A stretch of 64,000 bases of DNA from Azolla caroliniana (taxonomy: Eukaryota; Plantae; Polypodiophyta), in assembly GCA_043228905.1 (NCBI GenBank), contig JBHGNT010000001.1, forward strand, positions 23,560,001-23,624,000, given 5' to 3'. The notes beneath the pieces are model-generated. The model was not told the origin of the DNA. It worked only from the letters and a program-made list of their open reading frames with translations, and searched no databases. Each line of letters begins with the position of its first letter. Within the stretch, counting starts at the first letter, position 1. The translations under genes and the position numbers were made by a program. Shown here piece by piece: positions 2,235 through 64,000 of this stretch.

Positions 2235-4225
2235 GGAATGCACTATTTGCCCCCCCCAAATAGCGCCCCCTCCCCCAAATAAAGATACTCGCAAAAGACA
2301 AACAGGGACTCGTCTAATGGATTGCCCATTCTTCGTTAGAGCAAACTTCTCGAAGAAAATGGGATAGTGGACTATTAAAAAGGCTGCTATTACGCACAAC
2401 CATCCTATCTCGGTGGTATATCAATGGCTCATAGACTAACTGAAACAGAAAAAGCCATTGTTCGAGACATGGCAAATGTTGGAACTAGTGCGGCTTCAAC
2501 TCTGGTCTACTTGAGAGAAAAAACCGGAAATCAATGGACCACCAGGAAAGAAATCTACAACGAAAAAGTGGTTGCAAGAGCCGAGTTTCTTGACGAGCGC
2601 TTGCCAATTCAAGCGTTGTACGATGAGATCTCCACTGGCGACTTTATCTTCAATGTCAAGGTGAACTCGAACAGCTCAATCAATGGCCTTTTCTTTTGTC
2701 ATCAGAAGTCGGCAGATCTTGCCAGATGGTTCAATGTGGTATTTGTCATGGACTGCACCTTCAAAACGAATAGATTTGGCATGTCGTTGCTCAACATCGT
2801 TGGAATTACGGCCACAAATAGCACGTTCAATGTTGGATTTGCGTTCATATGCAACGAGACGGAACCCATGTATGTTTGGGCATTACAATTATTTGAATTT
2901 GTGACAAAGCCATCAGTAGTTGTAACTGATCGAGAACTTGCCTTGATGACTGCAATTGCTATCGTGTTCCCTTCTACAAAGAATTTGTTTTGCATCTGGC
3001 ATGTCAACAAAAACGTTCTGGCCTATGCAACGATGAAGTTTGCAAGCACCGACGACACAAACGCCTATATGGACGACTGGAACCGGCTTCTATACTCTTC
3101 CAACAAGCTAGATTTTGAGGCTAACTGGGCCACGTTTCAAACGAAATGGCGACCAAGTCATGATGCGCTGGTGTTGTATGTATACGAGACTTGGTTGATT
3201 CACAAAGACAAGATTGTACGTTATTGGACTAGTCGCTTCCCCCACTTTGGAATGACCAGCACCTCTCGTAGTGAAGGCAACCATTATGTCGTCAAGAGGG
3301 TTTTAGGCATTGTAAATAACGATTTGCTCACTGTATTCAAGAAAATTTGTTTACTACTGGACACACAGCTGACAGAATTGAACACCAAAATGGAGTCTGA
3401 CAAGTCTACACAGGCACATCAACATGCACTCGAGTTCATGAGGCCGCTAGTAAAGAAGATATCCAAACACACATTAGACAAGTTACTAGAGCAGTATAAG
3501 AAAGTTATTGACAACGATTATGATGATGAATGTACGGGGTTGTTTCGATCAAGTTTTGATGTTCCATGTTGTCATGACATTTTGAGATGCATCCAAAGAA
3601 ATGAAAGATTCCATATTGAAGATATTCACCGTCAATGGCACTTAATTGCGTGTTCAGTGGTTCAACCCACCGTTATAGCTGAGCCATGTTTGTCTCCCAG
3701 AAAGCGTTTGATGAGGAACATCGGGCAAAGATTGTATGAAACTGACGATGGCCAGGTTGTTGTTCTCATGACACGATTGGATGAAGCAAGTTAGGTACCA
3801 CTGCAGTCTCTCTCCAATCCAGTGGTGGTGACTAGGAAGCGAGGTCGCCCTGCAAGGTCAAAGAACAAAAAGGCCAACCAAAGGGAGAAGTCACTATTTG
3901 AGTACTCTACCGGTCGCAAATGTTCCAAATGTGGTCAAGCTGGTCACAACACACGCACTTGCGATATGCATTTGCCCCCCCATTTTGGCTATTTGCCCCC
4001 GTAGTACCAAGAAAGTTATTGACAACGATTCCTTTTTATGTAATAGTTGATAAACCTTTTTATGAGGTTGTAAAGTGTAATAGTTGATACATATCACAAA
4101 AAAAATTTGGCTGAGGTGAGAACTATCACAATTTTATTTTTTATTTTTATTTGGGGGGGGGGGGGGGGGGGGGGGGGTTAGCCAAAACGAGGGGGCGGAT
4201 TTAGGGGGGGCAAATAGCGCATTCC
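2235..4225 (+). mobile_element. Mutator-like (MULE) DNA transposon, internally deleted near its 5' end
   Basis: TIRs GGAATGCACTATTTGCCCCCCC... and ...GGGGGGGCAAATAGCGCATTCC; 8-bp TSD TATACATA (2227-2234 and 4226-4233). Confidence 0.92.
2424..4004 (+). pseudogene. MULE/FAR1-type DDE transposase with an in-frame stop at 3792-3794
   Basis: Motifs MDCTFKTNRFGMSL, VVTDRELAL and FCIWHV (CxxH). The same frame continues past the TAG into RKRGRP and a CSKCGQAGHNTRTC knuckle. A FAR1-like CPF..W..HNH remnant lies at about 2280-2420. Confidence 0.88.
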
Positions 4226-4349
4226 TATACATATAGATCTTTTCATTTTCTAAATTTATATGTATGTCAAATGACATGTTAGTTTTTGCAATCTTATGTC
4301 GTATGACATACGTCTTTGAAAAATGCCCGTCAAAAAACTTTGATACTAA

Positions 4350-4632
4350 CCCTTCCAGTTTAGGTCGTGTTGGCGTTGAACAGAATTGGTTGTAGATTGT
4401 ACAAGATGTCTCTATTTATAGGGTCTTAAGGAGTATTCCTAGAGTTTCTAAAAAGTTCCAGAGTACTTTAGATTGTTCTTGAATTTTGTAGATTATTCCG
4501 AAGAGTTCTAGAATCTAGTGAAATATTAAATGAAATATTTTATGTATTACAATATTTATTATAGTGGTAAAGTCTTAACGCATGTACCATAATGCCACGG
4601 GTTCAAATCTTACTCGAGGCTATATCATGACA
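4350..4632 (-). mobile_element. Truncated LTR with the same architecture as the element F LTR
   Basis: Minus-strand TATA (about 4413-4422), GAA/TTC array, tRNA-like box, and terminus ATCATGACA identical to the F LTR end. Left edge not resolved. Confidence 0.6.
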
Positions 4633-11870: not shown

Positions 11871-13400
11871 GCACATAAGTAAACGTTTTAGATAATCAAT
11901 TAAAGACCACTACAACATCATTAACTTAATGAAAAAAATGACATATAAACTAAACACATGATTAGATGGGAGAAGAGAGAATAGAAAAAAAAATTATGGA
12001 AAGAGTTACCGAAGTTCTTTGTTGATCGTTGTCTAGATCAAGACCGACCGCACATCGATCGATCACCATCAATCAAAAGACAAATGAAAAACAAAGAAAC
12101 ATTAGTACATAAATCTAATATCAAATATTAGAGATCTAGGTACTAAAGTAAGCTTAAGATAAGGATAAAGTAATGATAGATAGAAAGGAGAAAAAGAAAG
12201 AAGGGTGCCGATCCACCCGACCACCCCCGAGCGAAGGGATCGAGACGGACTCGAGCCTCGATCAGCATCCCATACCACCGCCGTGGCATCGAGTCGGACC
12301 TGGTGTTGGCGCGCTCCCTACAAGAGTTGACCCACCACAAGAGCAGAGTCTCGATGTAGTCAAAAGATGATCAAATGAGGGTAGTTAGGCCTCTTATTTA
12401 TAGCGATACCCAAGGCCCCCAGGCAAGTTCACACTTGACCTAATGGGTTGTCTCAATCCTGAGGATTAAAAGTAATCCTGCCCTTCTTTACACTCTCATT
12501 TAACCCTCACACTTATCCACGTTTATAGAATACTATGGTGTCGAGATATTACGCAAGTGCGTGTGGAAACGAGGCGGGACCGCGGGGGTCTCGAACCAAA
12601 GAGCAAGCGAGGGAGGAGGAAGAGAGAGAACCGGCTACGCAGGACCGGGGATACACAGGGACACGGCCCTTCAGCACGGAGAACGCGAACAGACACCGAC
12701 ACAGACAGATGCGAATGACTAAATATGTATATTAACAAAAATGGCTAACACGACTACAACCCTCGATGGGGCACAGGTTGGTTACAACCGAACAGGCCGG
12801 CGAACAGATGTCGATGCTTGTTCGCTTCGACGCACAAAGGGGCAGCAGGTCGGAGGTGCTGCCGGAAGCACTCAGGCGTTCCTCGAAACAGCGCGAGCCT
12901 CCTCGGGACCCTGCACAGAAAGCTATGGAGCTCAAGAAGGAAGGAAACAGAGAGAGAAGCGTCCAGAAACGGTCCGACAGCACTTCGTCCTCTCTGCGCG
13001 AGATGCCTGCAACAGCTCTTTCCTGCTCCTTATATAGGCCGACGACAGGCCGTCATGTCAGCTTTATTCCCTGTCCCTTTCGAACAGGGATCCGCTCCGT
13101 TCTTCACGCATCCGCGTAGTTACGCCGCCGACTCGTACAGTTCCTTAGCTCGCGCGCGCGACCGAAAAGACTGTTCGCGCGGTCTTTGTCTCCACTTGTG
13201 TTAGGGCCCGTTCCTGCCGATTATCCTCCTAATTCGCTTCTATGTACAACTTGGAGCGTGCGCGCGTGAAGAACCGGTTCCCACGCCTTGGTGCGCCGAT
13301 TCCGCTTATGGGCGGTTTTCTTCACGACATCCGCCCTCACCTAACCGCGCATCCTCCGGTATGCGCCAAGAGAGTTGGGACGGAGAAAACCGGCCCGTCT

Positions 13401-16889: not shown

Positions 16890-19001
16890 TCTCGGTTTTC
16901 GGAACCGAGGGAGTTGCGGTTACGTTCGTGGTTCGGCCGTACCGTCAGAAACTGGACCGAATGGCGCCCGTCTTGGCTTTTGACCCTCGCGTAGGCCGAA
17001 CCATTGTCCTGCACCTTGGTCTCCATTCGTGCCGCCGTGATGTACGGCTCTCCCAGTATGACCGGATGCGAAGACGTCTCCTGCACGAAGAAGTGCTGGT
17101 CAATCTCGACGTCGCCGATCTTGACTCGCACATTCGGACAGGCCCCGTGCAGTTCCTCGGTGGCGCGCGTTGCTGCCCTTATTTTCCACCCGTGCTTGGT
17201 GTTGATCGGCCATTTGCCCTTCTTATAGAAGTCCATGGACATCAAATTGATCTCCGATCCGTGGTCCACCAAAGCTATCACCGGTTCCTGGACATCGCCG
17301 ATCTTCACCGGGGTTTCCGTGGTCGCTCGGGCCCAGTGTGGTCTCGAATAGTGGCTTTCCGCCCACTCGTCTCCCAGCGCCATGTCGTCTAGGTGCGTCG
17401 TCCGCACTTCCACCGGTCTTTCCGGTTCTGTCTCCGTTGACAGCCTCTTCCGTTTCACCAAGTCCACGATGGAGTCGTGGAACTCCTTCTTGGCGATTCC
17501 CAGCACCTCTCGTAACGACAGCTCCACCTTGCTGTCGAGGATCCGTTCCTCCAGGACCTTTCGTAAGTCCGTGGTCCTTTCTATCTCCGTCCCCAGACGG
17601 TACCCGCCCTTCTGGGGTTTATCTTGCGTACCGGCCCCGCCGGCTTCGTCCCGTCGTGGTCCGGACCGGGTCTCGTATCGTTGTGAGGGCCCGGTCGTCC
17701 CGGGTTTCCCCACCCGCTTCTCTTCTACCAGAGCCTCGTAGTTCTGGCAAGCGGCTTCCACGAAGCCCGTCTTTTCCTCGACCGGGTCGCTCCACCCGGT
17801 CATCTCCCGTACCCGTTTCTCCGCACGGTCCGATTCTTCCCTTTTAAGCCTTGCACCGGCAAGGCCTTCCAGCATCGTCGGCCAGAATCCGGCTTTGCTT
17901 TCCCTTCGGGCCTCGCCGCCCCCGACTCGAATGTCGGCCGACGCCGAGTAGTGGACGGTTTCCGCGTGTCGGGCCGCCGCCTCTTCCATCAACCTTTTCA
18001 TACCACCTCGCCCGTCGTTTCGGCTCAGGGCCCTTCGGGTGTCGCTGGCATGCACCCGTCCTTCCCACAGGTACACCACCCTGTTCCCGAATGTGGCCGA
18101 CTTCATTGCACCACATGCACCTGTTTCCTGCCGCCGGCCGTCGGTCACGAGCCAGTTCGCCACCTTCCCTTCGGGCTTGCGCGATTTGGAGGTCCTTTAT
18201 CGCCCTCGTCAATTCCTCCAGCGCCGCTCCTCCGGTTGAGCCTCTGACTACGCCGGTCGAAGCCGAACCGGTTTCCAACCACTCTCGGGTCTCTTCCTTT
18301 CGCACCTGTGGCGCTGGTTCGAGCTTCCTTGCTGCGACCGAGCCCGACCCGGTTGCCCCGTTATCCGCCCATTCTCGTCGTTTGTCGAAACGGCCACAGA
18401 CTTTCTTGACAGCCGCCCAGTCGGTAGTGAGCCCGTCTTCGGTTTCCAGCAAGAGGCCCACTTGCTCCCGATCCCGCTCGTCGACCGACTTGACAAACAG
18501 CAAGACTCGGCTTGTGTCCAGGATGGTTCGGTCGAGCGCCGAAAGGCGCGCAAAGTTTTCCTCGAACTCCCGGAGGAGTGCCGACGCGTTTCTTCCCTTC
18601 CCCGGGGACTCCACCCATTCCATGAACCTTCGCTTCGAAAGCCGGAGCGCGTCGTCCAGCCCGTATTTCTCTAGGAGCCGACCTTCGAACTCCTCCCAGG
18701 TACGGCTCTCCGCCCGCACCTCGAGCACCTCCGCATGGATGCTCGGCATCGCCACTCGGGGAAATCCGGCAAGACGCCTTTCTTCCGAAATGTCCCGCAT
18801 CAGCATCTCTGCACCGTAGGACGCCAAATACTTCGTGGCATCCTTCCCATCGAACCGGCCGATCGTGCCGACGACCGCCTCAATAGCTCTGTCGAGGGCA
18901 CCGGTGCCCTCGCGCGCGTTTACAATCCGATCCACGGCCGAAGCCATGGCCTCTGCAAGATCCGACCCCCTCATCTTCTGCTCTTCTGCCGCCTCTTTCA
19001 C
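16880..19001 (-). pseudogene. Element B gag-protease, broken by a small deletion in the zinc knuckle
   Basis: RFDGKDATKYL Gag; CMWCNEVGHIR truncated relative to element C (which continues KECADFAEALRT); protease LVDHGSEINLM...ILGEPY. Confidence 0.85.
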
Positions 19002-19856
19002 GTCGAGTTCACCAAAGATGTCGAGATATTACGCAAGTGCGTGTGGAAACGAGGCGGGACCGCGGGGGTCTCGAACCAAAGAGCAAGCGAGGGAGGAGGA
19101 AGAGAGAGAACCGGCTACGCAGGACCGGGGATACACAGGGACACGGCCCTTCAGCACGGAGAACGCGAACAGACACCGACACAAACAGATGCGAATGACT
19201 AAATATGTATATTAACAAAAATGGCTAACACGACTACAACCCTCGATGGGGCACAGGTTGGTTACAACCGAACAGGCCGGCGAACAGATGCCGATGCTTG
19301 TTCGCTTCGACGCACAAAGTGGCAGCAGGTCGGAGGTGCTGCCGGAAGCACTCAGGCGTTCCTCGAAACAGCGCGAGCCTCCTCGGGACCCTGCACAGAA
19401 AGCTATGGAGCTCAAGAAGGAAGGAAACAGAGAGAGAAGCGTCCAGAAACGGTCCGACAACACTTCGTCCTCTCTGCGCGAGATGCCTGCAACAGCTCTT
19501 TCCTGCTCCTTATATAGGCCGACGAGCAGGCCGTCATGTCAGCTTTATTCCCTGTCCCTTTCAAACAGGGATCCGCTCCGTTCTTCACGCATCCGCGTAG
19601 TTACGCCGCCGACTCGTACAGTTCCTTAGCTCGCGCGCGCGACCGAAAAGACTGTTCGCGCGGTCTTTGTCTCCACTTGTGTTAGGGCCCGTTCCTGCCG
19701 ATTATCCTCCTAATTCGCTTCTATGTACAACTTGGAGCGTGCGCGCGTGAAGAACCGGTTCCCACGCCTTGGTGCGCCGATTCCGCTTATGGGCGGTTTT
19801 CTTCACGACAACGGTAAATTCTCACCACGGGATATTAAATGGTCATGCCCGTAACA

Positions 19857-22800
19857 GCCGTAGTGAGCGAGAGTTTAACCCCTAACCGTTCAAACAACTC
19901 TTCAGCCTCCTATGCATCCAGTTCCCCATGGTCCGCTACGATCTTTCCTACTCACCCATACCAAAACACCACCTCCTCGATTAGGAACCGGCATAAGGCC
20001 GCGGTCGTCTTGTTCGGTAATGCTCGGCCCTCCACCTGGTTCGTTAGATCTTCTCGAGCTAGCACTAGGTACCGCATCTGCCCTACCCTCATTGACATCG
20101 TTACCAGATCCACCATCCACTTGAAGTGGATGGTCGGCGGGTAAGTCGGGTGTAGCTTGTCCCGATGTCGGACTGTGGAATGTAGCTGACAGCTTTCGCG
20201 CGTCGTCACGAATTGGTACACATCCCGGTACAGCCCCGACCACCAATATTTCTCTCTCAGTTTCTCGAACGTGGCCCATTTCCCGTTGTGTCTGGCCGAA
20301 GGACTCTCGTGGTACGCCGTTAACAACTTGTCCTACTTGTCCTTTCTCGCCACTACGTGGAGTGGAACGTCGCCTCGCTTCTTTGGGAGCTTCCATATAC
20401 TTCCGTCCCGTAGGAAGAATCGGTATGCTTTCTTTTGGATCCGGTTAGCCTCCTCTCGGCTCCACGTCGCGTCCGCCATCATTGTCCTCAGGAATCTTCC
20501 AATTTGGAGCCACTCCCCATCGTACTCGCTCTCGTTGAACTCGTTAAGTGCCGGAGTGCTCCCTGCCCTTGTCGCTACGTGAGCCGACTCGAAGAAGTCT
20601 ACGCTGACTTCTTCGTCCTCCGAAACCATGCCGTTCTAGTCGTCGAAATGCGCTCTAGAAAGCATATCGGCCATGGTGTTGTCCTTTCCGGAGATGTGTC
20701 GTATCTCCGGGTCCAGGGACTTAATGTACGTGATCCACCTGAGCATTGCTAGGTCTGGAGTCGCGCATCGGGAAACCATACCGAGGATCGGCATGCAGTC
20801 CATCTCGATGATTACTTCTGTCCCGATCTTGTAGTCTTTATCGGTCTTGACCGCCGAAACGATACCCCACAGTTCGCGTTTAACTTGGGCGTATCCTCGA
20901 TGTCGCTCACTAAGAACCTTCGCCCCGAACCAAATCGGGAACCGCGTATTGCTCTCGTCCTCCTGATTGATCACCCATCTTATCCCGGTCGGGCTCGTAT
21001 CTACGGTTACGTAGATTGGGACCTCCTTGCCGTAAACCGCTTTCCGGAGAGCTGGTGCCACAATAAGCGCCTCCTTCAGTCTCCAGATCGACTCTGTATG
21101 CTCCTTGCCCCATTCGAATTTACGCCCCTTCTTCAGCACCCCGTAGAGTGGTTTCACGACGTGTGCATAGTGTGGAATCTAGATGTGATAGAATGCACAC
21201 GCCCCCAAGAACCTTCGGACCTCCGTAACTGACCTGCAATCGTCCTTCATCGCGGAGATGGCCGCCACCTTTGCCAGAGACGGTTTCCGGCCGTAAGGCC
21301 CGCACAAGTGCCTGACTACCAGTATATCCGACTGCCCGAAAGTTGACTTCTCTCCGGAGAAGGTGAGTTGTGTGCTCTCAAGTCTCTGTAGCACCTTCTC
21401 GCAGTCGTTGATGTGGTCCGCGACGAATTTCTGGCATCCGTGCGGCCCGACCGATTTGTCCTTATTCCCCACCAGACATCCCTTGATCGGGATGTTGTCC
21501 AAGAATGACATGGTGATGTCCGGGATGCAGTCCCTCAGCACCTTGTTCATCGCATTCACCATGTGCGCCACCGAGTTGGTCCCTCCCTACGGCAGGGTAC
21601 ACATCCACACTAGGCCGAGATGAGTCCGCATCGTTGTGATATCCCTGCTCTCTACGGCTGGTTGGAACTGGTCATACCTTGAATATAGATCACCGACCGA
21701 ATAGATTGACCTTCCGGGGAAGGCCTCCGCGAACTCGTCGATTGTCGGTCCTATACCTGCGTTTCGAATGGTCACCTTGTTGACCGACTGTAGGTCTTGT
21801 ATGAAGTGCAACGTGTCATTCTTTTTCGGCACGGTGAACCACCGATTCGAATACGGGGCACTCGACGGGTCGAGGATGCCCATCTCTAGTTTCTGTTTTA
21901 GCAGCTCCACCAACTTCGGGACGTGAGCTCTAGGTACCGGAATCAGTTTGAGATTCCACGGCACATGCAGTACCGTGAATATTACCATCGGTTCTACGAT
22001 CGATGGGTCTACGCACCCGATCTCCTCCGATGAGAATGCGAAGACCTTCTCGTGCCTTCCGAGCATCCTCCGAAACCGGTCCTCCTCCGCCGGCAATAGA
22101 AAGTCACCCGTACCAACCTTGAGCTCCCGTAGCGTTGTCGTGAAGATCTGTCACTACGTGCGGATCGTGAGGCGGAACCGCTAGGGTTCTGGACCGGAAG
22201 GATTCGAAGTTTGCACAAGCTTTAGCGAGAAAGTATTTAAGATAGATTGAAAGAGAGAGATTGAGATAAGATAAAACGCGTGACTTTAGATTTGAAGAAC
22301 AAGATTGATACATCAATTGGATAACGAATTTTCTTCTTAATTTTAATTTTGGTATAAAGCTCTTGATAAGAATTTTACATTTTTTTTTTCATCTTTTTCC
22401 CCTCCTATTTTATAGATGCCCTCATGCATTTGAGGGTACAAGACATGCATAAAATGCATGTTTGCCTCATGTATGAGAATTTACATGTAAAGTTATAATG
22501 ATAGAAATATAATTTCTAAAGAAATGGTTCGGCTTAATGGTAAGCCTATTGCTTCCTATCTTGGAGGTGTTAAGTTCAAGTCTTGCTTACATCTTTTTCT
22601 TTTATGCACAAAATACTATTAGGCTTTTGGACCAAACATCTTTAAGACACCATGCACCGCGATCAACCGACCCGACCGATTCGTCCGATTTGCATCCGTT
22701 TGGTTTGGCCCAGTCCGGTCGCCGGTTGTTTTCTATGATTCATACTCGATTTTGTACATTTTATGTGATTTTCATACCATTGCCGAAAATCTTCACGACA

Positions 22801-45082: not shown

Positions 45083-45651
45083 TGTGTGTGCATGAGTTGC
45101 TTTTTACACTATGTTTTTATTTCCTAAATATAGTGCTCATGCTCGCTAGATGTGCACGAGTAATTTTTTATTGGTATACATTTTTCTTATAAATAAAGTA
45201 TTCACGCATTCTAAAAATGCATGGCTTACCTTTTAATAAAGGTAGGCATAAATAACGGTCTTAAACGTATTAAATCTATATTTGAAACATTTAGGATAAG
45301 TTATTACAATGGTAAGGTTGGGGATTGTCTACATGGAGGTACAGGGTTCGAATCTTGCCCTATGCATGTAACAATCTTTTCTTCTATTTACAAATTTATC
45401 TCTTCATTCGATGAGAGACTCTCATCGGTCTTCTTTATCCGGCTCTTGTTGGTTCTGCTTGATCCGGTTCTTACCGGGTCCTCCTTACCTGTTCCTCCTT
45501 CATCCGATTCTCACTGGTTCTCCTTACCGAGTCCTCCTTATCAGATCCTCCTTCATCCAGTTCTCACTGGTTCTCCTTACCGGTTCCTCCTTGTCCCATC
45601 CGGAGGAACCAAAATGCAATTTTCACATAGTGTGCGAATTACACTACGACA
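45083..45651 (-). mobile_element. Probable partial LTR of a D-like family
   Basis: Same order of parts as D: AT-rich tract, tRNA-like box, ATCTTTTTCTT, short CCGG-containing repeats, terminus ACGACA. Confidence 0.5.
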
Positions 45652-46836
45652 CTCGATGTCAGGAATGGTACTAAACAGAGAGAGAATTAGTACTAGAGAA
45701 GATAAGTACTATTAGTACTAAGAGGACGAGACTGTGTAAGATTCCCGAGAGAGGAAGAGAGAAGAGGAGAGAAAGAAAGAAAGATGATGACAACAACTAA
45801 TATATTATGTGAAAGATAAGTACAAAGTGGCGAAGAGGCTTAAGACTGGCATTGAACCAATTTGGTTCAAAACAATGCCTTGTGCCTCCTTTTATAGTGT
45901 TTTTAGGAATAATCCTTAAGCTTTTAGAATGTTCCAGAGAGATCTGGAATATACATCAATTTTCTATGATAAAGCATAAATGAAAATAATATCCTACAAA
46001 TTACAATTCATAGTCTAATGGTAAGAGCTCGACCCATGTAGCATAAGGTCATGGGTTCGAGTCTTGCCATATCATGACACTATCTCCCCCTTAAAGACGA
46101 TGAGTGGAATGAGTCGGCGCTGATTGCGGACCGGGTTTGTCCAAATACTTGCGATGGAAATCAACAAGAAGATCCTGAGCATTGGCAACATGCTCGACGG
46201 GTTCCCAAGTACGTTTGCTCGGACTATAACCGAGCCAATTGACCAAATAATAAAGTTTATTGCGAACAAGTTTGGAATCAAGGATGGTAGCAACTTCATA
46301 CTCTGGGCCGACGTCCAACTCCAGCGGGGGCGGCGGTGGTGTAACACGATCGAGAATGGTGTTTGCTTTATAAGGTTCAAGAAGAGAACAATGGAAAACC
46401 GGATGTATCTGAAGCTGTGGAGGGAGATCAAGGCGGAATGTGACATCATTAACCTTACCTGTAATACGGAAAGGACCGAGTCGTCGATAATCCAACTTGT
46501 CGCACGGTCGAGTAGTCTTAATGTGACGACGTAAGAGCCATACTTGATCTTTGATGGCAAAAGAGGAGGGAATCTGATGTCGATCTGCATAAGTCTTCTG
46601 TGTGTGTTGAGCATGACGAAGGTGAGTAGAGAGATCCATTTGGATCTTGTGTAGCCTCTCCAAATGATCCTCGGCACGAGGGTTCGTAGGTAGCTCCGGG
46701 GTGTCGATCACCGACCAACGAGGATGAAAACCGGTATAAGCAAAAAATGGGGAAACCCGAGTCGAGGAGTGAATAACATTATTATACGCAAACTCCGCAA
46801 AGTGGAGAATCTCAGCCCAATCGTCTTGTTGATAAC

Positions 46837-46892
46837 TGTAAAGAATCAAGAGATGGATTCTTGTGAAGCGGAATAGGTGTGAACTGTGTGTG

Positions 46893-46942
<50 letters not shown>

Positions 46943-49900
46943 AGTATACGCAAGGTAGATTGTATTAACAAAGGAGAAAGACACAACTCTATACAAGGTG
47001 GGAGGAGGGTGCTTTATGTAGTAACCCTCTCTCTTCATTAACTACAAAGCTCATGGAGCATGGGGAATGTGAAAGCTCATAAGTTATGTGTCATAGAATA
47101 TGATTCTATGACTCATACTAAATGCTAGAATACAAAGTGGTGACATAATGGTGACCCTTAACTGTTGGAGTGTCTCTTCACTCTCAAGGTGAGTTCACAC
47201 ACTAGACCAAGTTGAGCTTGATTCTCAACACGCCTCCTCAAGCTCAAGTCGGGTCGGTTTCAGACTGTATCCGAAATCCGCTTCAACTCGTGTTCTGGAG
47301 TCCGCGTCAACTCGTGTCGACTCGCATGTATGCGGAGTTGCGGAATCCGTGCTCCAGCTTGCGTTGTGCGTAGTTATGAAGTCAGTGCTTCAGCTTGCGT
47401 GCGTAGTAGCGAAGTTTGTGCTTCGGCTTGTGTCTTTCTTCGCGGCTTTGTTGCGTGGTTGCGGAATCCACGCGTTATTGCGTAGTGCGCGGTTGCGGAA
47501 TCTACACGTTATTGCGTAGTGTCTTCAGTACTCCCCCTCAAGCTTGGCAGGTCAGGGATCGTCAATCCGAGATCGGTCATGAATTTCCATAGCTTGTCGG
47601 CTCCTAAGGCTTTAGTGAAGATGTCAGTCGTTTGAAGATTGGTGCTAATGTGTTGTAGGTCGACATCGCCAGCTAGAACACACTCTCGGATGAAGTGATA
47701 GTGCACTTCGATGTGCTTTGTCCGCGCGTGGAACACCAGGTTCCGAGCCAGATAAATACTGCTCATGTTGTCGTAGTAAAGGGGAGTCGGATCCTTGATG
47801 GGAACGCCCAAATCCTTCAAAATCCTCTTAAGCCATACGACTTCACATGCAGCTACGGCTGCGCCCCTATATTCTGCCTCCGTACTCGAAAGAGCAACGG
47901 TAGGCTGCTTCTTGCTACTCCAGGATACTGCTCCGCTGCCGAGGGAGAAAACAAATCCGGAGGTTCTTCTATCGGATTTGTAGCCGGCCCAATCAACGTC
48001 TGTGTACCCCTTGAGTCGTATTGGCATTGCGGTCTTGTAGAGGATGCCACAATCCATTGTGCCGCTCACGTATCGTAGAACTCGCTTAGCGCAATCCAAG
48101 TGAGTATCACGCGGTGTTTGCATGAATTGGCTAAGGAGACCGACCGGATAACTCAGATCGGGTCGTGTGATCGTGAGGTAGATGAGACTCCCAATGAGTT
48201 GCCGATACTGAGTCGGCTCACACGCTTTGGTGCCGGAGTTCGCATCTAGTTTGAGATTACGATCGAGCGGGGTTGCCATGGATTTGCACTCAGCCATCCC
48301 AAACTTGTATAACAAGTTCAGGATGTAGTGCCGTTGAGAGATCATGATTCCGGCCGGAGTCCGAATTACCTCGATGCCGAGGAAGTAGTGGAGCTCCCTC
48401 ATGTCCGTCATCTCGAACTTGTCGGAAAGGAGGGATTTGACTTTATTGATTTCAACGAGATGCTCACCTCCAATGACTAGGTCATCCACATATAAAATGA
48501 TGATGATCGGACTTGCGGAATCGCTTCGTATGTAGAGGGAGTTGTCCGATTTTGACATACGGAAGCCGATTTGATGAAGATATTGCGTTATCTTCGAATG
48601 ACAAGCACGCGGTGCTTGCTTGAGGCCGTAGAGTAGCTTCTTGAGTCGGCATACAGCTTTCGGATGGGTGCTCGAGTTGAAACCGGGTGGTTGGATCATG
48701 TACACCTCCTCTTCTAATTCGCCTTGTAGAAAGGCATTCTTGACGTTCATTTGATGGAGGTGCCACTCTTTCGCCGCGGCAATTGCAATTACGGTCCGCA
48801 CCGTTGTCATCTTTGCCACCGGAGCAAAGGTCTCTTCATAGTCGACGCCATGTGTCTGAGCGTATCCTTTCGCTACGAGTTGAGCTTTGTAGCGGTTTAC
48901 GGAGCCATCAACGTTATACTTCACCTTGTAGATCCATCTGCATCCGATCGCCTTTTTGTGTGGTGAGGTGGGAACGAGATCTCACGTCTCGTTCTTCCGT
49001 AGTGCCTGCATCTCCTCGTTCATTGCTTTGATCCATCGCGGGTCCTTCGCGGCTTCTGAAAAGGTTTCCGGCTCTCGTACTGTCACTACCTTCATCATAA
49101 AGGCGTAATGGTATGCCATATAATCGTTGTAGCCGAATCGGCTTACGGGGTTCTTTTCACGGGTGGAGCGACGGAGCTTTTCATTTGCTGAGATGAGGGC
49201 TTTCTTAGCTCCGATTGGTACATCGAAGCCGCCGAACTCACTGTCGAGTGAGTGAGTCGATTCATCGTCGTTGAGGCAATCGTCTTCATATTCCGCCATT
49301 TTCGCCTTGCCTTTGTCCATCTTCGGGCTAGGCCGTGATGTGCTTTGATCGCTCAAAGGCTCTTGTGGTCCGCTCAGTCGGGTCGTGATCGGACTTTCTT
49401 CGATCATGCGCGTAGGACGATCTTCATCCTCGATCTCTTGTTCGGCAAATTCCGGGTCGAGTGGAAGCGAAGTTGTCTCTGGTGCGTACTAGGATGTGGA
49501 CTCGTCAAAAACGACGTCTCGACTTACTCGAGATTTTTGAGTTGAGGGGTTGTAGCACTTGTACCCCTTTTGCTCCAGTGAGTATCCTACGAGGATACAT
49601 TTCTCCGACTTTGGGTTGAGCTTTTGACGCTTCTCGTCGGGGATGTGCACGTATGCAATGGAGCCGAATATCCGAACATGTGATAGGTTCAGCTTCTTTC
49701 CGAAGAATCTTTCGTGCGGAGTGACCTCGTGCACGCCGGATGTTGTGCACCGGTTCATTAGGTAGACGGCCGTATTTGCCGCTTCGGCCCAATATGACTT
49801 GGGCATATGCTTCTCGTTCATCATGGCCCGTGCTACTTCGAGGATGTGCCAATTTTTGCGCTCAGCTACTCCGTTTTGTTGCGGAGTGTGTCGGCAAGTG

Positions 49901-51879
49901 AATTCTCATCGAATTCCTTCCTTTCGGAGATACGTCGTGAAATCGTCTGAGAAGTACTCCTTGCCGCCATCTGATCGAAGGCACCCTTCTTGGTCGAATT
50001 GTACTTGCATCCCTTGCTCAACCATTTGGCCAACCGAGACCAAATTCTTTGTGATGGTGGGTACATGCAAGACATTTTTAATGTATGTTTGCTTACCTCT
50101 TTCGCCGAACAGAACATTGCCGATGTGCCGAATCGGGTGCGTAGTGTCATCTCCGGTTTCGACATAACCGGGTCGCTCCGGCTCTTGAAGTTTGAGAAAC
50201 CATTCTTTGTGGGATGTCATATGGTTTGAGGCTCCGGAGTCAACAAACCATATGTCCTCCGGATTGAGGGCACTAGTTGAGGTAGAGGCCGACATAGACT
50301 TTGCTCTATGTTTCATCATGAACATTCTGCCACGGTCGGAGTTGTATGCGTACATTCCGCCACGATCCTCGTAGTCGGAGTTGTGCCCGTACATTCCACT
50401 ATACTCTTCGTAGTCAGAATTGTGCGCGTAATTCGTGAGTTGTCGGCTTGTGGAAGCCGATTCACGCATCTTCTTTCGGCACTCTTCTTCGTGGTGGCCA
50501 AGCTTTCCACAATATCCGCATTCAGTTGCGTTTTGACGGCTCGGGCCGGAGTGGAAGCTCCCCCTTCTTGCGAAGGTTCCTCGTTGGCCTCCGTTTTGCG
50601 GCCGAAATTGGGAGTTGTTGTCGTAGGTCAGACCTCGTCTGCCTTGTCCTTGGCCGAATCGGCCTCTCGCTCGTCTGCGTCCTCTTCCTCCATTAGAGTG
50701 CGTGTAGAGCATGTGGCCTTCCGACTCATTGCTCCTTGTACGCACGTGGTTTTCTTCGATCAATAGCATTGATTGGAGCTCGAAGAAGGAGGGAGATTTC
50801 TCCCGTGCTAGAACGGCGGTTTGCATTGCGCCAAACCATGGTGCGAGGCCGCCGAGGCATATTTGCACCATCTCATCATCATCTATACTTACGCTTATTG
50901 AGCCAAGCGAGTCGCAAAGCTCCTTGATCTTTAAGGTGTATGTCGTGATGGACATGTCCCTTTGTTGAATGTTGTTCAACTCTTGGCGGAGTTGAAGCTT
51001 CCTCGCGGTCGTGTTGGCAGCGAAAATCTTTCGTAGATTTTCCCACGCTTCCTTCGGCGTCTTGGCTTCTCGAATGTAACCGAGCATGTGGTCGTGATCA
51101 CATGTCGCCAAACAATACATCATGCGGCTTGCGGCTTGCTCCTATGTCACGTATCCGGGAGCCGCTTCAGCGGGTCGGTCTTCATGCGCTCCTTTGATGT
51201 AGCTCCAATAGCCTTGTCCGACAAGGTATTGGTGCATCTTGTACTCCCAAGATGCGAAGTTGTTTCGATCCAACTTCTCGGTAGGGAGAGCGCTCCCCAT
51301 TTGAGTATTCATTATGTCGATTCTTCTTCTTCTTCTTCTTCTCTCTTCGAATGCGAGCTATGTAGCGAAGCTATGATAGCGATGAGCCGGTTCTTGGTCG
51401 TCGGCGTAGAGCACAACACACGATCATGATGAGGCGAATGGGCTAGATCGAGCTACCAAATTGCTCTGATACCATGTAAAGAATCAAGAGATGGATTCTT
51501 GTGAAGCGGAATAGGTGTGAACTGTGTGTGTATGAGAGAGAGAGAGAGAGAGAGAAACAAGGAGTATACGCAAGGTAGATTGTATTAACAAAGGAGAAAG
51601 ACACAACTCTATACAAGGTGGGAGGAGGGTGCTTTATGTAGTCACCCTCTCTCTTCATTACAAAGCTCATGGAGCATGGGGAATGTGAAAGCTCAAAGCT
51701 CATGGAGCATGGGGAATGTGAAAGCTCATAAGTTATGTGTCATAGAATATGATTCTATGACTCATACTAAATGTTAGAATACAAAGTGGTGACATAATGG
51801 TGACTCTTGACCGTTGGAGTGTCTCTTCACTCTCAAGGTGAGTTCACACACTAGACCAAGTTGAGCTTGATTCTCAACA
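46837..51879 (-). mobile_element. Element G: Ty1/Copia inserted in the F integrase
   Basis: LTRs 46837-47230 and 51475-51879; 5-bp TSD ATAAC; PBS TGGTATCAGAGC (tRNA-Met) at 51463-51474. Confidence 0.96.
47509..51300 (-). pseudogene. Element G gag-pol with stops and an internal deletion removing the integrase N-terminus
   Basis: CGYCGKLGHHEEEC, WFVDSGASNHM, junction FDQEG|CLRSDGGKEY, YVDD, KHIEVHYHFIRE. Confidence 0.9.
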
Positions 51880-54800
51880 ATAACTCAGGAAACATAAGAG
51901 ATATTGTTCTAGTGTTTGGTTTATTCGTTCCGTCTGCCCATCAGTCTGGGGATGGTAGCCGGAGGAGAGGTTGCAAGAGACCTTGAGCATCTTGAAGAGA
52001 TGTTGCCAAAATTTGGAGACGAATTGAGGTCCTCGGTCACTGATGATACTGTCTGGGAGGCCGTGATGCCGAAATACCTCACGCATGACGAGGGCGGTGG
52101 TTTCCTCGCTAGGGATGGCCTTAGTACACGACACAAAATGTGCCATCTTCGTATATCGATCGATGACGGTTAAGATAGCATTGAACCCCTTCGAGACTGG
52201 CAGATCGGTGATAAAATCAAGACAAATAGATTGCCATGGCTTACTTGGAATCGGTAAGGGTTCCAACAAGCCATATGGATGGTGTTGTAGCATCTTTGCT
52301 CGACAAAAAGCATCACAGGTACGAACGTAGTCGTTGACAAAACGACGCATGTGGGGCCACCAAAAAGATTGTTGCACTAGATCCAACGTCTTAGTACTAC
52401 CCAAATGTCCTGCCGTATGGGTGTCATGACAATTCTGGACGATTTGAAGACAATAGGAGCAATCAGGGACATATACGCGCTTTTTAAAGAATAACAAACC
52501 ATCATGATATTAGAATTGTCGGTAGTCAATACCTGGTTGTTCAGACTGAGAACAGGATGCCCGAGAAGTATCAATGTGCGCCAGGATGTCTTGAGAAAAA
52601 CTATCCGTCTTCAAGTTTGCACGTATGTCATCGGTAATCCGTGAATCCATCGGGGTGTGAAAAATCTGCGTTGTGTGCAATCGTGTTGGTCCCAAGATTA
52701 CTTGCTTTTGATTATCAAATGTTGGATCACCAGGACGAGGTGCAAGATATGAACGCCGTGATAGTGCATCTGCTTTTCCTTGCTGCTTCCCCGGTCGATA
52801 TGTGATTTTGAAGTCGAAATGCGTGAGGAATTGAGCCCACCGAGCTTGCTGTCGATTTAGTACACGAGCGTTTTGGAAATAAGCAAGATTTTCATGATCA
52901 CTAAAGACAATGACCTGATGTGGAGAGCCCTCTAAGAAATGCCGCTATTGCACAAATGAATCCACGATGGCTAATAACTCCTTGTCATGTATTTCGTAGT
53001 TGATTTCCGCGACATCGAATTTGCGCGAATGGAAAGCCACTGTATGTAACTCTTCTTTATCTCCTTGTTGAGAAAGGATGCTACCAAGGGCGAAATCTAA
53101 TGCGTCGGCCTCCATGATGAATGGTTTGCTTGTATCCACATGAGCTAGAATCGCTGCTGATTTAAAGGCTTTCTTAAGATGCCGAAAAGCCATATCTGCT
53201 TCATTGGACCAACGAAATTCTTGTCCTTTCTTCGTAAGTTGTGTGAGAGGTAAAATAATCTTCGAGTAATCCTATATAAACTCACGGTAGAAGTTAGCAA
53301 AACCTAGAAAACATTGTACATCTCGTACCACCGTGGAATTTGCCAATCTAGTACAGCTTGGACTTTAGCTGGATCCATGGCGATGCCCTTTGAGGAGATG
53401 ACGTAGCCTAGAAATTCCACTTGCTTGCAGTCAAAGCTACATTTTTCTAGCTTGGCATAAAGACCATTCTCGCGGAGTCGCTTTAGTACTAATAGTACAT
53501 GAGAATCGTGCTCTTCCTGGGTCTTCGAATAAATCAATAGATCATCTAGATAGATGATCAAACAGATATCCAAGAGGTCTCTGAATATATCATTTGCCAT
53601 GTGTTGGAAGACTGCGGGTGCATTGGTTAGGCCGAACGACATAACAGTATACTCGAAATGCCCATACCGCGTGCGAAAGGCGGCCTTCCATTCATCTCTC
53701 GGTCGGATCCGCACGAGGTTATACGCTCCTCGTAGATCGATTTTTGGTAAAAAACTTGGCACCATTAACTCGCTCTAAAAGACTTGATATAAGAGTAAGT
53801 GCATACCTATTCCGGATGGTGACCTTATTCAATCCGCGGTAATCAACGATGAGACGAAGTGAGCCATCTTTCTTCTTGACAAAGAAGATGGGTGCACCGG
53901 CCGGAGATTTCGAATGACGGATGAACCCTCTTGCCAAGTTCTCCTCTATGTAGGCTCGAAGGACTTCTAACTTGGTGGGTGACAAGTTGTAAATTGGTCC
54001 CCATGGTGGCTTGGTTCTTGGTTGTAAATCGATGGGACAGTCATAGGGACGGTGATGAGGAAGGGTACCGGCCTTTACCTTGTCAAATACATCGGCATAA
54101 GGATGATATTTTGCCGGAAGTTGTACTGAGGATTCCTTCTTAATAGTGTTGGAAGGATGTACTGATATTGCAAATAGGAACATTGCCTCATGTCCTTCTT
54201 CACGTAATTGATGGAGTGAAATGGTCGAAACTCGGTGAGTAGATTCTTGGGGTTGTCGATATCAGACTTCTCTTGTTCTCCAATCTATGGTTGGATTATG
54301 TAATTCAAACCAAGGTAATCCTAGGACAATGGGATGCTCTGGACTACTAATTATATTAGATGATACTACACACACAAAACTACCTAGGACAACTTGAATG
54401 GGTTCTGATTCTTCTACAATATTCCCGGAAGCAATGGGACGACCATCAATGACTACTACAGATGCGGGACAAGGAAGTTTTCTTAAGGATATCTGAGAAG
54501 CTTGGGCAAAATTTCTATCCATGAAACAAGAATTAGCTCCGGAATCTATGTTACCCGGACCCGGACAGTCAGTTTTACCGAACAAGTGGGAAAGCGTCGA
54601 AAACGGAGTCGGTTCGGATCGACTGTTCGGATCAATGACTCAGTAGTAAACGAAGAGAACTAAGTTAGTTAGATAATTTTGTAATTCTTGATAGTAAGTA
54701 GGAATAGTTCTTGATGAGAAAAGACCTTCGGTATACCTATAAAAGGGAACCGAAGGCATTGTTAGAAAGGTCGTTTTATTTAGTAATATAAGTTTAAGTT

Positions 54801-61691: not shown

Positions 61692-63869
61692 GCGTGGGTT
61701 CGCTGGACAAGGTCCTGGCCCACGGACGTGCCAAGTGTTACCCGGACCCGGACAGTCAGTTTTACCGAACAAGTGGGAAAACGTCGAAAACGGAGTCGGT
61801 TCGGATCGACTGTTCGGATCAATGACTCAGCAGTAAACGAAGAGAACTAAGTTAGTTAGATAATTTTGTAATTCTTGATAGTAAGTAGGAATAGTTCTTG
61901 ATGAGAAAAGACCTTCGGTATACCTATAAAAGGGAACCGAAGGCATTGTAAGAAAGGTCGTTTTATTTAGTAATATAAGTTTAAGTTAGGAATATCCTGT
62001 ACGGATTCTGTGTTCTTCCTATTGTCTATGTTGTTAAGTGCAAGCTTCCTAATTTATAACTAAGTAACGATCACGGTAATTACCGATTAATATAGTATAA
62101 TTCCGTTCGTAAAACACAATTACTTGTTAGAACGTTGGGTAGCGACGCTCACTCTTCTGTATCGGTAGTAGTTAGTAATTAGCCGATTAACAATCTAAAA
62201 GTGCTAGGACAGGTACTAGGGGCGTACTTTTAGTACTAACAATGACTTGGGCTAGGAACAGATTGCTAACTTGCTTGGAAGGAATGGAACCACTAATGGG
62301 CTCTACAGATCTAGGGTTGCTGTCCAACCAAATGGCTCCTATTTTGGCTGGACTCAATCGTTTAACTCTTCATCTAATTGACTAAGGATTTAAAATTTGT
62401 TTGAGATACTTGGGCTATTAGTACTATGAATACTATTTGACACTCTATTAGTACTATTAATACTATCAGACACTCCGAAGGGAAGAATTGACTTGGGTTT
62501 AGTACAGGCGACGATTTGATTTACCTGTCTTCTTGGTCTATGGGGACAATTGATGGCGATATGCCTTGGTCCACCGCAATAAAGACATAATCAATTGGCA
62601 CGTCGTCGTTGCTTTTCTTCTTCCGATAACGGGCCGCGTCGACGCATGGTGTCGATCTCCATCGGTGTCGGAATATTGGCTTGAGGTACGTCGCATGCAA
62701 ATGGTTTAGCCGTGACTAAGGCGTATGTGGGTTCCGGCCGAGAGTGTGGTATTTGTAATTGACGTTCCGAACGCCATTCGAAAAGGCGGTTGTCGCATCG
62801 GACCGCTCGACTGATTGCCTCCCGTAAGAGACTTTGGTTCTTCGGGGAAGGTTAAAAGCAAGTCTTTGACATCGTTGCGCAAGCCGTAGTGAAACTATTC
62901 CATGAGGGCCTGATCATCCCAGGGGATATCTGAGGCAAGTAGACGGAAATTCGCCGCGTAGGCAGAGGCTAGACAATCGCCTTGACGCAATCTTCGGATT
63001 TTGTTGATCATCGCCCCGATGCTGTCGGTATCTCCAAAGCATGCTTTAAACTCACTAATAAAATCTTCAAAGTTATTAAGCAAGGGCGATTGTTTTTCTA
63101 GAAGCGGAGCGAACCATGCCAAGGCTGAGCCGCTAAGTAACGTGCCTATTAGGCCGACTCGAGATGCATCAGTGAGATATCGGGAAGGATGCATCTGGAT
63201 GACTAAGCGTACCTGATTAAGGAATCCCCGGAATTGCGATCGCGTTCCATCAAATTTCATAGGAAGTCCAATCTTGGGCTCTTTATGAAATCCTTGGGGA
63301 CTTGATCCTTGTTATTGCAACGCTGCTTCGAGTTGTTGTACCCATAACGCTAACTCCCCATGTTGTTGTCGCATTTGTTGTTTTTCTAGAGCGATTTGTT
63401 GCAGATCCCCTATCAACCGTTGGTTTTCTTGTTCGAGGGCAACAAACTTTTCTTTTAGACACTGTAGCTCAGAGAAAACGGATTGATATTCTTGGGCGCT
63501 AACAGTAGCCATAGTATAGAAAAAGGATAGGAGGAGGAGGGAAAACGACAAGTAGACTTGAGGAAGGCAAATTGGTTCAAACTGTCAGGAATGGTACTAA
63601 ACAGAGAGAGAATTAGTACTAGAGAAGAGAAGTACTATTAGTACTAAGAGGACGGGACTGCGTAAGATTCCCGAGAGAGGAAGAAAGAAGAGGAGAGAGA
63701 GAGAGATAGCGAGAATGAGAGAGAGAGAAAGATGATGACAACAACTAATATATTATGTGAAAGATAAGTACAAAGTGGCGAAGAGGCTTAAGACTGGCGT
63801 TGAATCAATTTGGTTCAAAACAATGCCTTGTGCCTCCTTTTATAGTGTTTTTAGGAATAATCCTAAAGC

Positions 63870-63897
63870 TTCTAGAATGTTCTAGAGAGATCTGGAA
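63870..63897. promoter_or_regulatory. Heat-shock-element-like array in the F LTR U3
   Basis: TTCtaGAAtgTTCtaGAgagaTCtgGAA about 25-55 nt upstream of the minus-strand TATA; variant in the 3' LTR at about 45922-45949. Confidence 0.6.
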
Positions 63898-64000
63898 TAT
63901 ACATCAATTTTCTATGATAAAACATAAATGAAAATAATATCTTACAAATTACAATTCATAGTCTAATGGTAAGAGCTCGATCCATGTAGCATAAGGTCAT

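Follow-up and report, generated by a model that had tools for sequence, protein, structure and literature searches.

Antisense tRNA-type A-box/B-box cassettes in the U3 region of Ty3 retrotransposon LTRs from Azolla caroliniana

Results

Self-comparison and Pfam resolved the window, a 64-kb stretch of Azolla caroliniana DNA, into a nest of retrotransposons. Chromovirus A occupies 5.6-12.5 kb (self-comparison and Pfam), while Pfam places a MULE transposase ORF at 2379-3791 and pieces of LINE reverse transcriptase at 26.2-29.5 kb and 41.6-43.8 kb. The window also holds a Ty3 element, B, and an older relative of B that is interrupted by a solo LTR, D. Element B is a DUF4100 Ty3 with LTRs 99% identical to each other, and sits inside the 5' LTR of A. 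Its target site duplication (TSD) is of the 4-bp NCGN type (12535-12538 and 19811-19814), with a CpG-type change in one copy, and its primer binding site (PBS; 18995-19019) starts a few nucleotides from the LTR. Copia C (46837-51879, TSD ATAAC) lies in the integrase of a further element, F, and a second C-like copy, deleted and with a tandem duplication of the LTR end, is found at 43.9-45.1 kb. In element G, a purine tract is absent before the 3' LTR (61710-61735), and the stretch preceding this LTR ends in TGCCA plus 2 nt, resembling a tRNA 3' end. By self-comparison, the insertions nested in the window land in the internal region of F.

Element F lies on the minus strand and codes for gag, reverse transcriptase, RNase H, integrase, and a chromodomain, this copy having acquired stops. 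Its 3' LTR (45657..46079, TG...CA) is 91% identical across 418 columns to its 5' LTR (63583..64000), which is interrupted by the end of the window. A polypurine tract (PPT; 46080..46092), identified from the sequence, adjoins the 3' LTR, followed by the integrase C-terminus with SH3 and chromodomain (46094..46780, Pfam); the remaining pol and gag (51877-54261 and 62778-63515) are separated by the nested Copia C and element G. A Pol II TATA box is located at 45890..45896 and the likely start of R at 45852..45863, of which 12 nt are complementary to the PBS (63568..63582), the 5' LTR carrying a single mismatch. The PBS lacks the TGG start of a tRNA-primed site, and the pairing is a Tf1-type self-priming signature. 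Complementarity of 9-12 nt between PBS and R start was found in 13/13 loci listed, both sides changing between families; loci with this signature include L034 (4643), L039 (4747), L041 (4450), L044 (2117), and L047 (3617), and a CACCAGT/CGCCAGT word is conserved after the R start. By its chromodomain at the integrase C-terminus and its self-priming PBS, F is a full-length Tcn1-like chromovirus, a likeness that rests on these features, the integrase trees having been built from fetched loci without named reference elements.

A tRNA-type cassette is located in the 3' LTR of F at 46011..46067 on the plus strand, antisense to the element. Its A box (T8-A21) spans 46011-46023 and its B box 46054-46063, with AGGTC at tRNA positions 44-48; some 16 nt separate the end of the B box from the outer LTR end, and the TATA box, which faces the opposite direction, is about 113 nt away from the A box. 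A fifth cassette starts at 63959 in the 5' LTR, where an earlier note made from the letters of this DNA had seen the start repeated; A box and spacer are present, and the B box falls beyond the window. Solo LTR D (22136..22800, minus strand) is bounded by a 12-bp terminal inverted repeat and a 4-bp TSD, GCGT, and its termini resemble those of Ty3 element B. Its cassette (22530..22598, plus strand; A14 at 22536, B box 22573-22582) lies 114 nt upstream of a minus-strand TATA box at 22408-22414. Behind it, 12 nt past C61 and directly after position 73, comes a T5 run, the layout of a tRNA gene plus terminator. The third cassette (4557..4613, plus strand), found by pattern and blastn, is near the outer end of an LTR at about 4341-4632 with 66-75% identity to F, L056, L063, and others, which belongs to the wider clade of F. 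The fourth (45302..45358, plus strand), found by pattern, is carried by an unplaced 287-bp fragment (45087-45373) that has an LTR-terminus-like end 19 nt past the B box; no TSD was seen, no relative was present among the LTRs compared, and no firm orientation could be read.

The geometry of these cassettes is constant. Position A14 (tRNA numbering) of the four complete plus-strand cassettes falls at 4563, 22536, 45308, and 46017, and the distance from A14 to G52 is exactly 37 nt in 4/4. The strict A-box/B-box pattern occurs four times in the window versus zero (maximum 0) in 100 block shuffles. The four cassettes of the earlier note were all located, with the tRNA-like spacing it had described. 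The LTRs of F, D, and 4341-4632 are on the minus strand, as read from the TATA box and, for F, also from the ORFs and PPT; in 3/3 LTRs that can be oriented, the cassette thus points against the element and precedes its Pol II TATA box, as claimed. F is indeed a chromovirus, as judged by the Pfam chromodomain, and the GCGT duplication places D in the 4-bp-TSD group. The description of the carriers as unrelated LTR families held only in part, since the LTR with A14 at 4563 is related to the F clade, leaving three groups. Positions 34-36, those of an anticodon, read CCT in D, GTC in the cassette labelled E, and mostly ATG in the F clade. By pattern, 4/9 window LTRs scanned have a cassette, and those of A, B, the older relative of B, Copia C, and G have none. 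Copia C gave a single 5-bit profile match but no pattern match, and D itself scores only 5.7 bits with this chromovirus-trained profile.

When the strict pattern was run on viral contigs, 30/30 matches fell inside tRNA genes called by ARAGORN, in identical register; the cassettes therefore have the geometry of a short-arm tRNA gene. They share with tRNA genes an A and a B box at tRNA spacing. The cloverleaf with its four stems is absent: ARAGORN called 0 tRNAs in the window, Rfam gave no tRNA match, and stem pairing did not exceed that of shuffled partners (fraction of shuffles reaching the observed value: acceptor 0.055, D 0.27, anticodon 0.18, T 0.72). Relaxing the ARAGORN thresholds yielded 10, 274, and 1674 calls, all noise. 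Of the proposed tRNA or SINE derivation, the tRNA part is supported; neither a SINE body nor a SINE TSD was seen.

Conservation was assessed within families from D and between families from the loci fetched below. Pairwise comparison of 10 distant cassettes gave mean identities of 0.70 in the A-box core (14-21), 0.81 in positions 44-48, and 0.76 in the B box (52-61). The corresponding means were 0.38 in the anticodon-arm region, 0.42 in upstream DNA, and 0.32-0.37 in downstream DNA. With the anchoring G18/G19 removed, the A box remained at 0.63 versus a background of 0.38 (permutation p 1e-5, by a statistic that ignores relatedness). Fourfold-degenerate integrase sites of 9 families were 0.40 identical (36 pairs), which makes neutral retention of boxes at 0.70-0.81 unlikely. 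A14-to-G52 spacing was 37-39 nt, constant within 2 nt. The boxes are thus far better conserved than the flanking U3, the comparison on which the earlier note had staked its claim, with spacer and flanks near 0.3-0.45. Boxes that were kept while stems were lost indicate a selected DNA motif, and neither a tRNA nor a sporadic SINE insertion. At the level of sequence, this pattern points to selection on a promoter-type DNA element rather than on an RNA fold, an argument also made for Helenus elements (PMC10886601).

Further features recall tRNA genes. DNA upstream of the cassettes is 80-92% AT, and CAA occurs near +1 in 8/15 cassettes, several of them close kin, versus 0-3/15 control windows; plant tRNA genes are reported to have AT-rich upstream DNA and CAA near +1 (PMC7544208, PMC3082873). 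Most copies have position C56 of the B box within a CpG. C56 is intact in 7/7 high-coverage versus 5/10 low-coverage contigs (p 0.04), a contrast expected if amplifying copies keep C56 while old copies decay, and partly artefactual in that collapsed contigs show fewer private mutations. Many single copies have decayed boxes, with C56T in 5/17 contigs. The AGGTC block (44-48) equals the boxes in conservation, yet lies outside the textbook B box and reaches an identity of only 0.34 among 152 phage tRNAs; another factor may read this block. D and E share only AGGT of it while keeping both boxes, and their spacer identity to chromovirus cassettes is 0.26.

The occurrence of the cassette among relatives of F was scrutinized in 79 loci fetched by integrase alignment irrespective of cassette. 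Scanning of 13/64 parts of the collection had confirmed 582 stretches, of which these 79 ranked best. An LTR start was located with at least 90 nt of 3' LTR in 64/79 loci, which were evaluable. Because the profile had been trained on 15 carrier loci, presence was counted with the training-free pattern. In the integrase clade of F (SH-aLRT 97-98; members 52-89% identical to F), 16/18 evaluable LTRs carry an antisense cassette and 3/18 a sense match, and a second chromovirus clade has the antisense cassette in 3/6. Among the remaining relatives, antisense (8/39) and sense (8/39) matches were equally frequent, which is background. The integrase tree came from a quick search that did not include L064, L082, and L090; L064 and L082 were assigned to the F clade on the strength of 65-70% integrase identity and similar LTRs. 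The cassette is a lineage trait of the F integrase clade. Its absence was recorded in A, in L049/L050 inside the clade, in L044, and in families around L053-L079. Viral contigs yielded no real relative of the F integrase (one 22-residue match) and none of B.

Carriers of the F clade have the B box ending about 16-40 nt from the LTR end, which leaves no room for a SINE body. This position, the presence in 16/18 members of the clade, and bridging contigs that make the cassette family-wide in D together refute ordinary SINE insertions present in only some copies; body, tail, and own TSD of a SINE were likewise not found. Repeated acquisition, as proposed earlier, finds support in F versus D (no blastn similarity, spacer identity 0.26) and weak support in the second chromovirus clade: joining both carrier clades was rejected at AU p 0.029, for a group named after a tree had been seen. 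By contig names, every carrier belongs to one assembly series, and LTR exchange within one host group is thus as possible as separate capture.

The distance between TATA box and cassette varies in this clade. A fixed value of 113-114 nt, as in F, D, L032, and L056, was considered and fails across the clade, where TATA-to-A-box distances range from about 113 to >200 nt. Two profile matches in L034 were discarded because they fall within the coding sequence of pol, and so was a weak A/B-box cassette at 12717-12772 of L061, which is in noncoding DNA of another assembly series without LTR context. In the first 150 nt of the LTRs of L046, L102, L047, L052, and L055, B-box remnants accompany worn or displaced A boxes, possibly stages of cassette loss. 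A reversed L068-type LTR piece with its cassette lies at 140-200 of L042, beside the gag of another chromovirus.

LTR D is an unrelated high-copy family with NCGN targets and its own cassette. It has no blastn similarity to any other LTR compared. Four runs recovered 1339, 1308, 339, and 343 contigs on its U3, and CG occupies TSD positions 2-3 in many insertion flanks. The cassette is family-wide, with several contigs spanning it and both flanks; only four single contigs, at depth 12-20, join the flanks without it. The box variants listed affect positions 15, 57, and 60, all of them degenerate, and most depth has tRNA-type letters at positions 8 and 52, where the window copy deviates. LTR comparison and a search of viral contigs recovered no internal region of D, which is known as a solo LTR.

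Discussion

Given this contrast between kept boxes and lost stems, we favor, tentatively and as something near an even call, a selected tRNA-derived A/B motif in U3 that is likely bound by TFIIIC and would shield or open up the neighboring Pol II promoter. Retention of the boxes amid drifting DNA makes it likely that the cassettes recruit the host tRNA-gene machinery. TFIIIC, and probably also TFIIIB and Pol III, would bind the cassette back to back with the Pol II promoter, and the bound cassette would most likely be a chromatin barrier or opener that travels with the element, so that the promoter stays usable after insertion into silenced DNA. Because U3 is copied into both LTRs whenever the element is reverse transcribed, the motif in each new insertion is located close to the outer edge or at it, with host flank on one side and the TATA box on the other. 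A cassette that faces outward cannot drive genomic RNA, and with no primer to hold either, a role for TFIIIC/Pol III on the DNA, or an antisense RNA, is left. We infer that the source of the cassette was a captured tRNA gene, a SINE head, or a Helenus-like LTR piece; an ancient SINE head is possible. Overall, the first interpretation of this locus, a tRNA- or SINE-derived Pol III module with candidate roles as insulator, antisense promoter, or targeting aid, is partly supported.

Precedents for a barrier come from yeasts. Fission yeast tDNAs are reported to be heterochromatin barriers through TFIIIC and Pol III, active in both orientations (PMC2040200), and in budding yeast TFIIIC sites are reported to block stray Pol II transcription (PMC4228148). 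The barrier idea alone leaves the uniform antisense orientation unexplained; with the cassette facing outward, Pol III would be kept clear of the Pol II start. The many cassette-less relatives and the variable TATA distance count against a barrier role. So does methylation, as LTRs are usually methylated. In Arabidopsis, methylation is reported to repress tRNA genes (PMC7544208).

The main rival is antisense transcription, in which the cassette would be an active Pol III promoter whose RNA matters, reading from the 3' LTR through the PPT into the end of integrase. Antisense or small RNAs could then limit copy number or pace replication, D giving an RNA of about 75-80 nt. The invariably antisense orientation and the retention of both boxes at 37-39 nt, not of box B alone, favor such a promoter. 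T4 is absent for about 2.5 kb past the B box of F in the window and for about 500 nt in L032 and L042, and the T5 of D directly behind position 73 could end a defined RNA. Foamy virus LTRs are also reported to hold Pol III units that give miRNAs. These foamy virus units are located in U3. However, the first T4 lies 0-53 nt past C61 in most families, >500 nt in some, and none is within reach in L033. A terminator at such variable distance (0 to >2000 nt), together with the lack of conserved RNA structure, argues against a defined RNA product in the F clade, where a transcript from the 5' LTR would moreover enter random host DNA. We therefore consider an active antisense promoter unlikely, if still a serious candidate.

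It is less probable still that a Pol II factor, or proteins of the element itself, read the conserved block, the tRNA origin having supplied raw sequence only. A TGAC/CATGAC-type site resembling the LTR terminus overlaps tRNA positions 44-51, positions 44-48 are the best-kept stretch (0.81), and CATGAC-like words recur in the U3 of the cassette-less L044 and L053 and near the LTR end of A. Such a factor leaves unexplained why an A box is kept 37-39 nt away, and why D and E, with AGGT alone of the block, keep both boxes.

We regard as improbable an action at the RNA level, whereby U3 in the genomic RNA, being complementary to the D and T loops of tRNA, would capture a tRNA of the host or a fragment of one. 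In its antisense orientation and its place in U3, the cassette does resemble the bipartite primer site of Ty3, in which U3 sequence is reported to be complementary to the D and TPsiC arms (PMC5371799). Ty3 differs in being tRNA-primed and pairing with one tRNA, whereas the F clade bears the self-priming signature in all 13 loci listed, predicting no primer tRNA, and keeps the boxes alone. Docking of one tRNA species should also have preserved stems and anticodon arm, both of which drift.

That the cassette is a selectively neutral remnant in U3, left by an old insertion of a SINE, a tRNA, or a Helenus-like piece, is most improbable and largely refuted by the conservation contrast: decayed boxes in many single copies and the relatives without a cassette would suit it, but not the identity of the boxes relative to synonymous sites, spacer, and flanks, nor the constant spacing. 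Just as improbable is a landing pad for Pol III-targeting retroelements of the same or other families, for although Ty1, Ty3, DGLT-A, and Skipper-2 are reported to target tRNA genes (PMC5911963), no element terminus was found at a constant distance upstream of the cassette among the LTRs examined, the D-family loose ends near the cassette, among the 24 of about 400 rows listed, appear to be subfamily variants and not TG/CA termini, and the nested insertions of the window lie in the internal region of F.

The closest known system is Helenus/TRIMp3, where tRNA-derived LTR sequence is likewise conserved at boxes A and B without a working tRNA, and the LTR of Selaginella Helenus has a similar layout of AGGTC and then B box close to the CA end (PMC10886601). 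Box-focused conservation is thus common to both. Helenus is described as a short nonautonomous TRIM whose tRNA part, sense in the LTRs examined, is proposed to drive its own transcription (PMC10886601), whereas F is a gag-pol element that codes for proteins, with relatives found via integrase, and its cassette lies antisense upstream of an ordinary TATA box, as do those of D, the LTR with A14 at 4563, and 16/18 clade members. According to Kojima, autonomous partners must use Pol II, and tRNA-like parts occur in "not a few" LTRs of Repbase, TRIMs alone having been followed (PMC10886601). Cassandra and Ajax TRIMs similarly keep an internal Pol III promoter inside plant or animal LTRs over long periods, but theirs is 5S-derived, the elements are nonautonomous, and the promoter serves genomic RNA, as shown for Cassandra and proposed for Ajax (PMC10886601, PMC12786077).

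Among autonomous elements, Tcn1 chromoviruses share with F the chromodomain and predicted self-priming (Neumann et al. 2019, PMC6317226), and Phygy-like non-chromoviruses share 4-bp NCGN-type TSDs with D and B, D being compared by its TSD (PMC6317226; Novikova et al. 2010, PMC2864245). The accessible parts of these descriptions mention no tRNA-type U3 cassette (PMC6317226, PMC2864245). Yeast tDNA/ETC barriers resemble the cassettes as TFIIIC-type boxes that act as DNA elements beside Pol II units, but they are fixed host loci active in either orientation, unlike the mobile cassettes found here in one orientation (PMC2040200, PMC4228148). Outside subscription journals, we found no antisense tRNA-type boxes described in autonomous plant LTRs; Repbase may hold cases.

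These comparisons bear on a broader reading, possible although we would not call it probable, by which a tRNA gene was domesticated independently in at least two unrelated autonomous Ty3 lineages and now serves in U3 as a Pol III/TFIIIC module that faces outward, so that a chromatin barrier would arrive with every insertion. Pol III promoters described so far in plant LTRs belong to tiny nonautonomous elements and serve their own RNA. A selected antisense A/B module in full-length elements points to a different use, as an element-borne insulator or antisense promoter, and offers a testable explanation of continued promoter activity in elements inserted into heterochromatin. Plants would gain a defined, high-copy test case for the TFIIIC barrier function shown in yeasts. 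If the reading is true, heterochromatin-seeking chromoviruses would stay transcribable, and many tDNA-like insulators would be scattered across the plant genome.

Loose ends at 22534 and 22546 of LTR D lead to other repeats that have the A-box region of D and differ upstream of it or in the anticodon arm. One of these repeats again shows CTCCTA, and such repeats are probably more carrier families.
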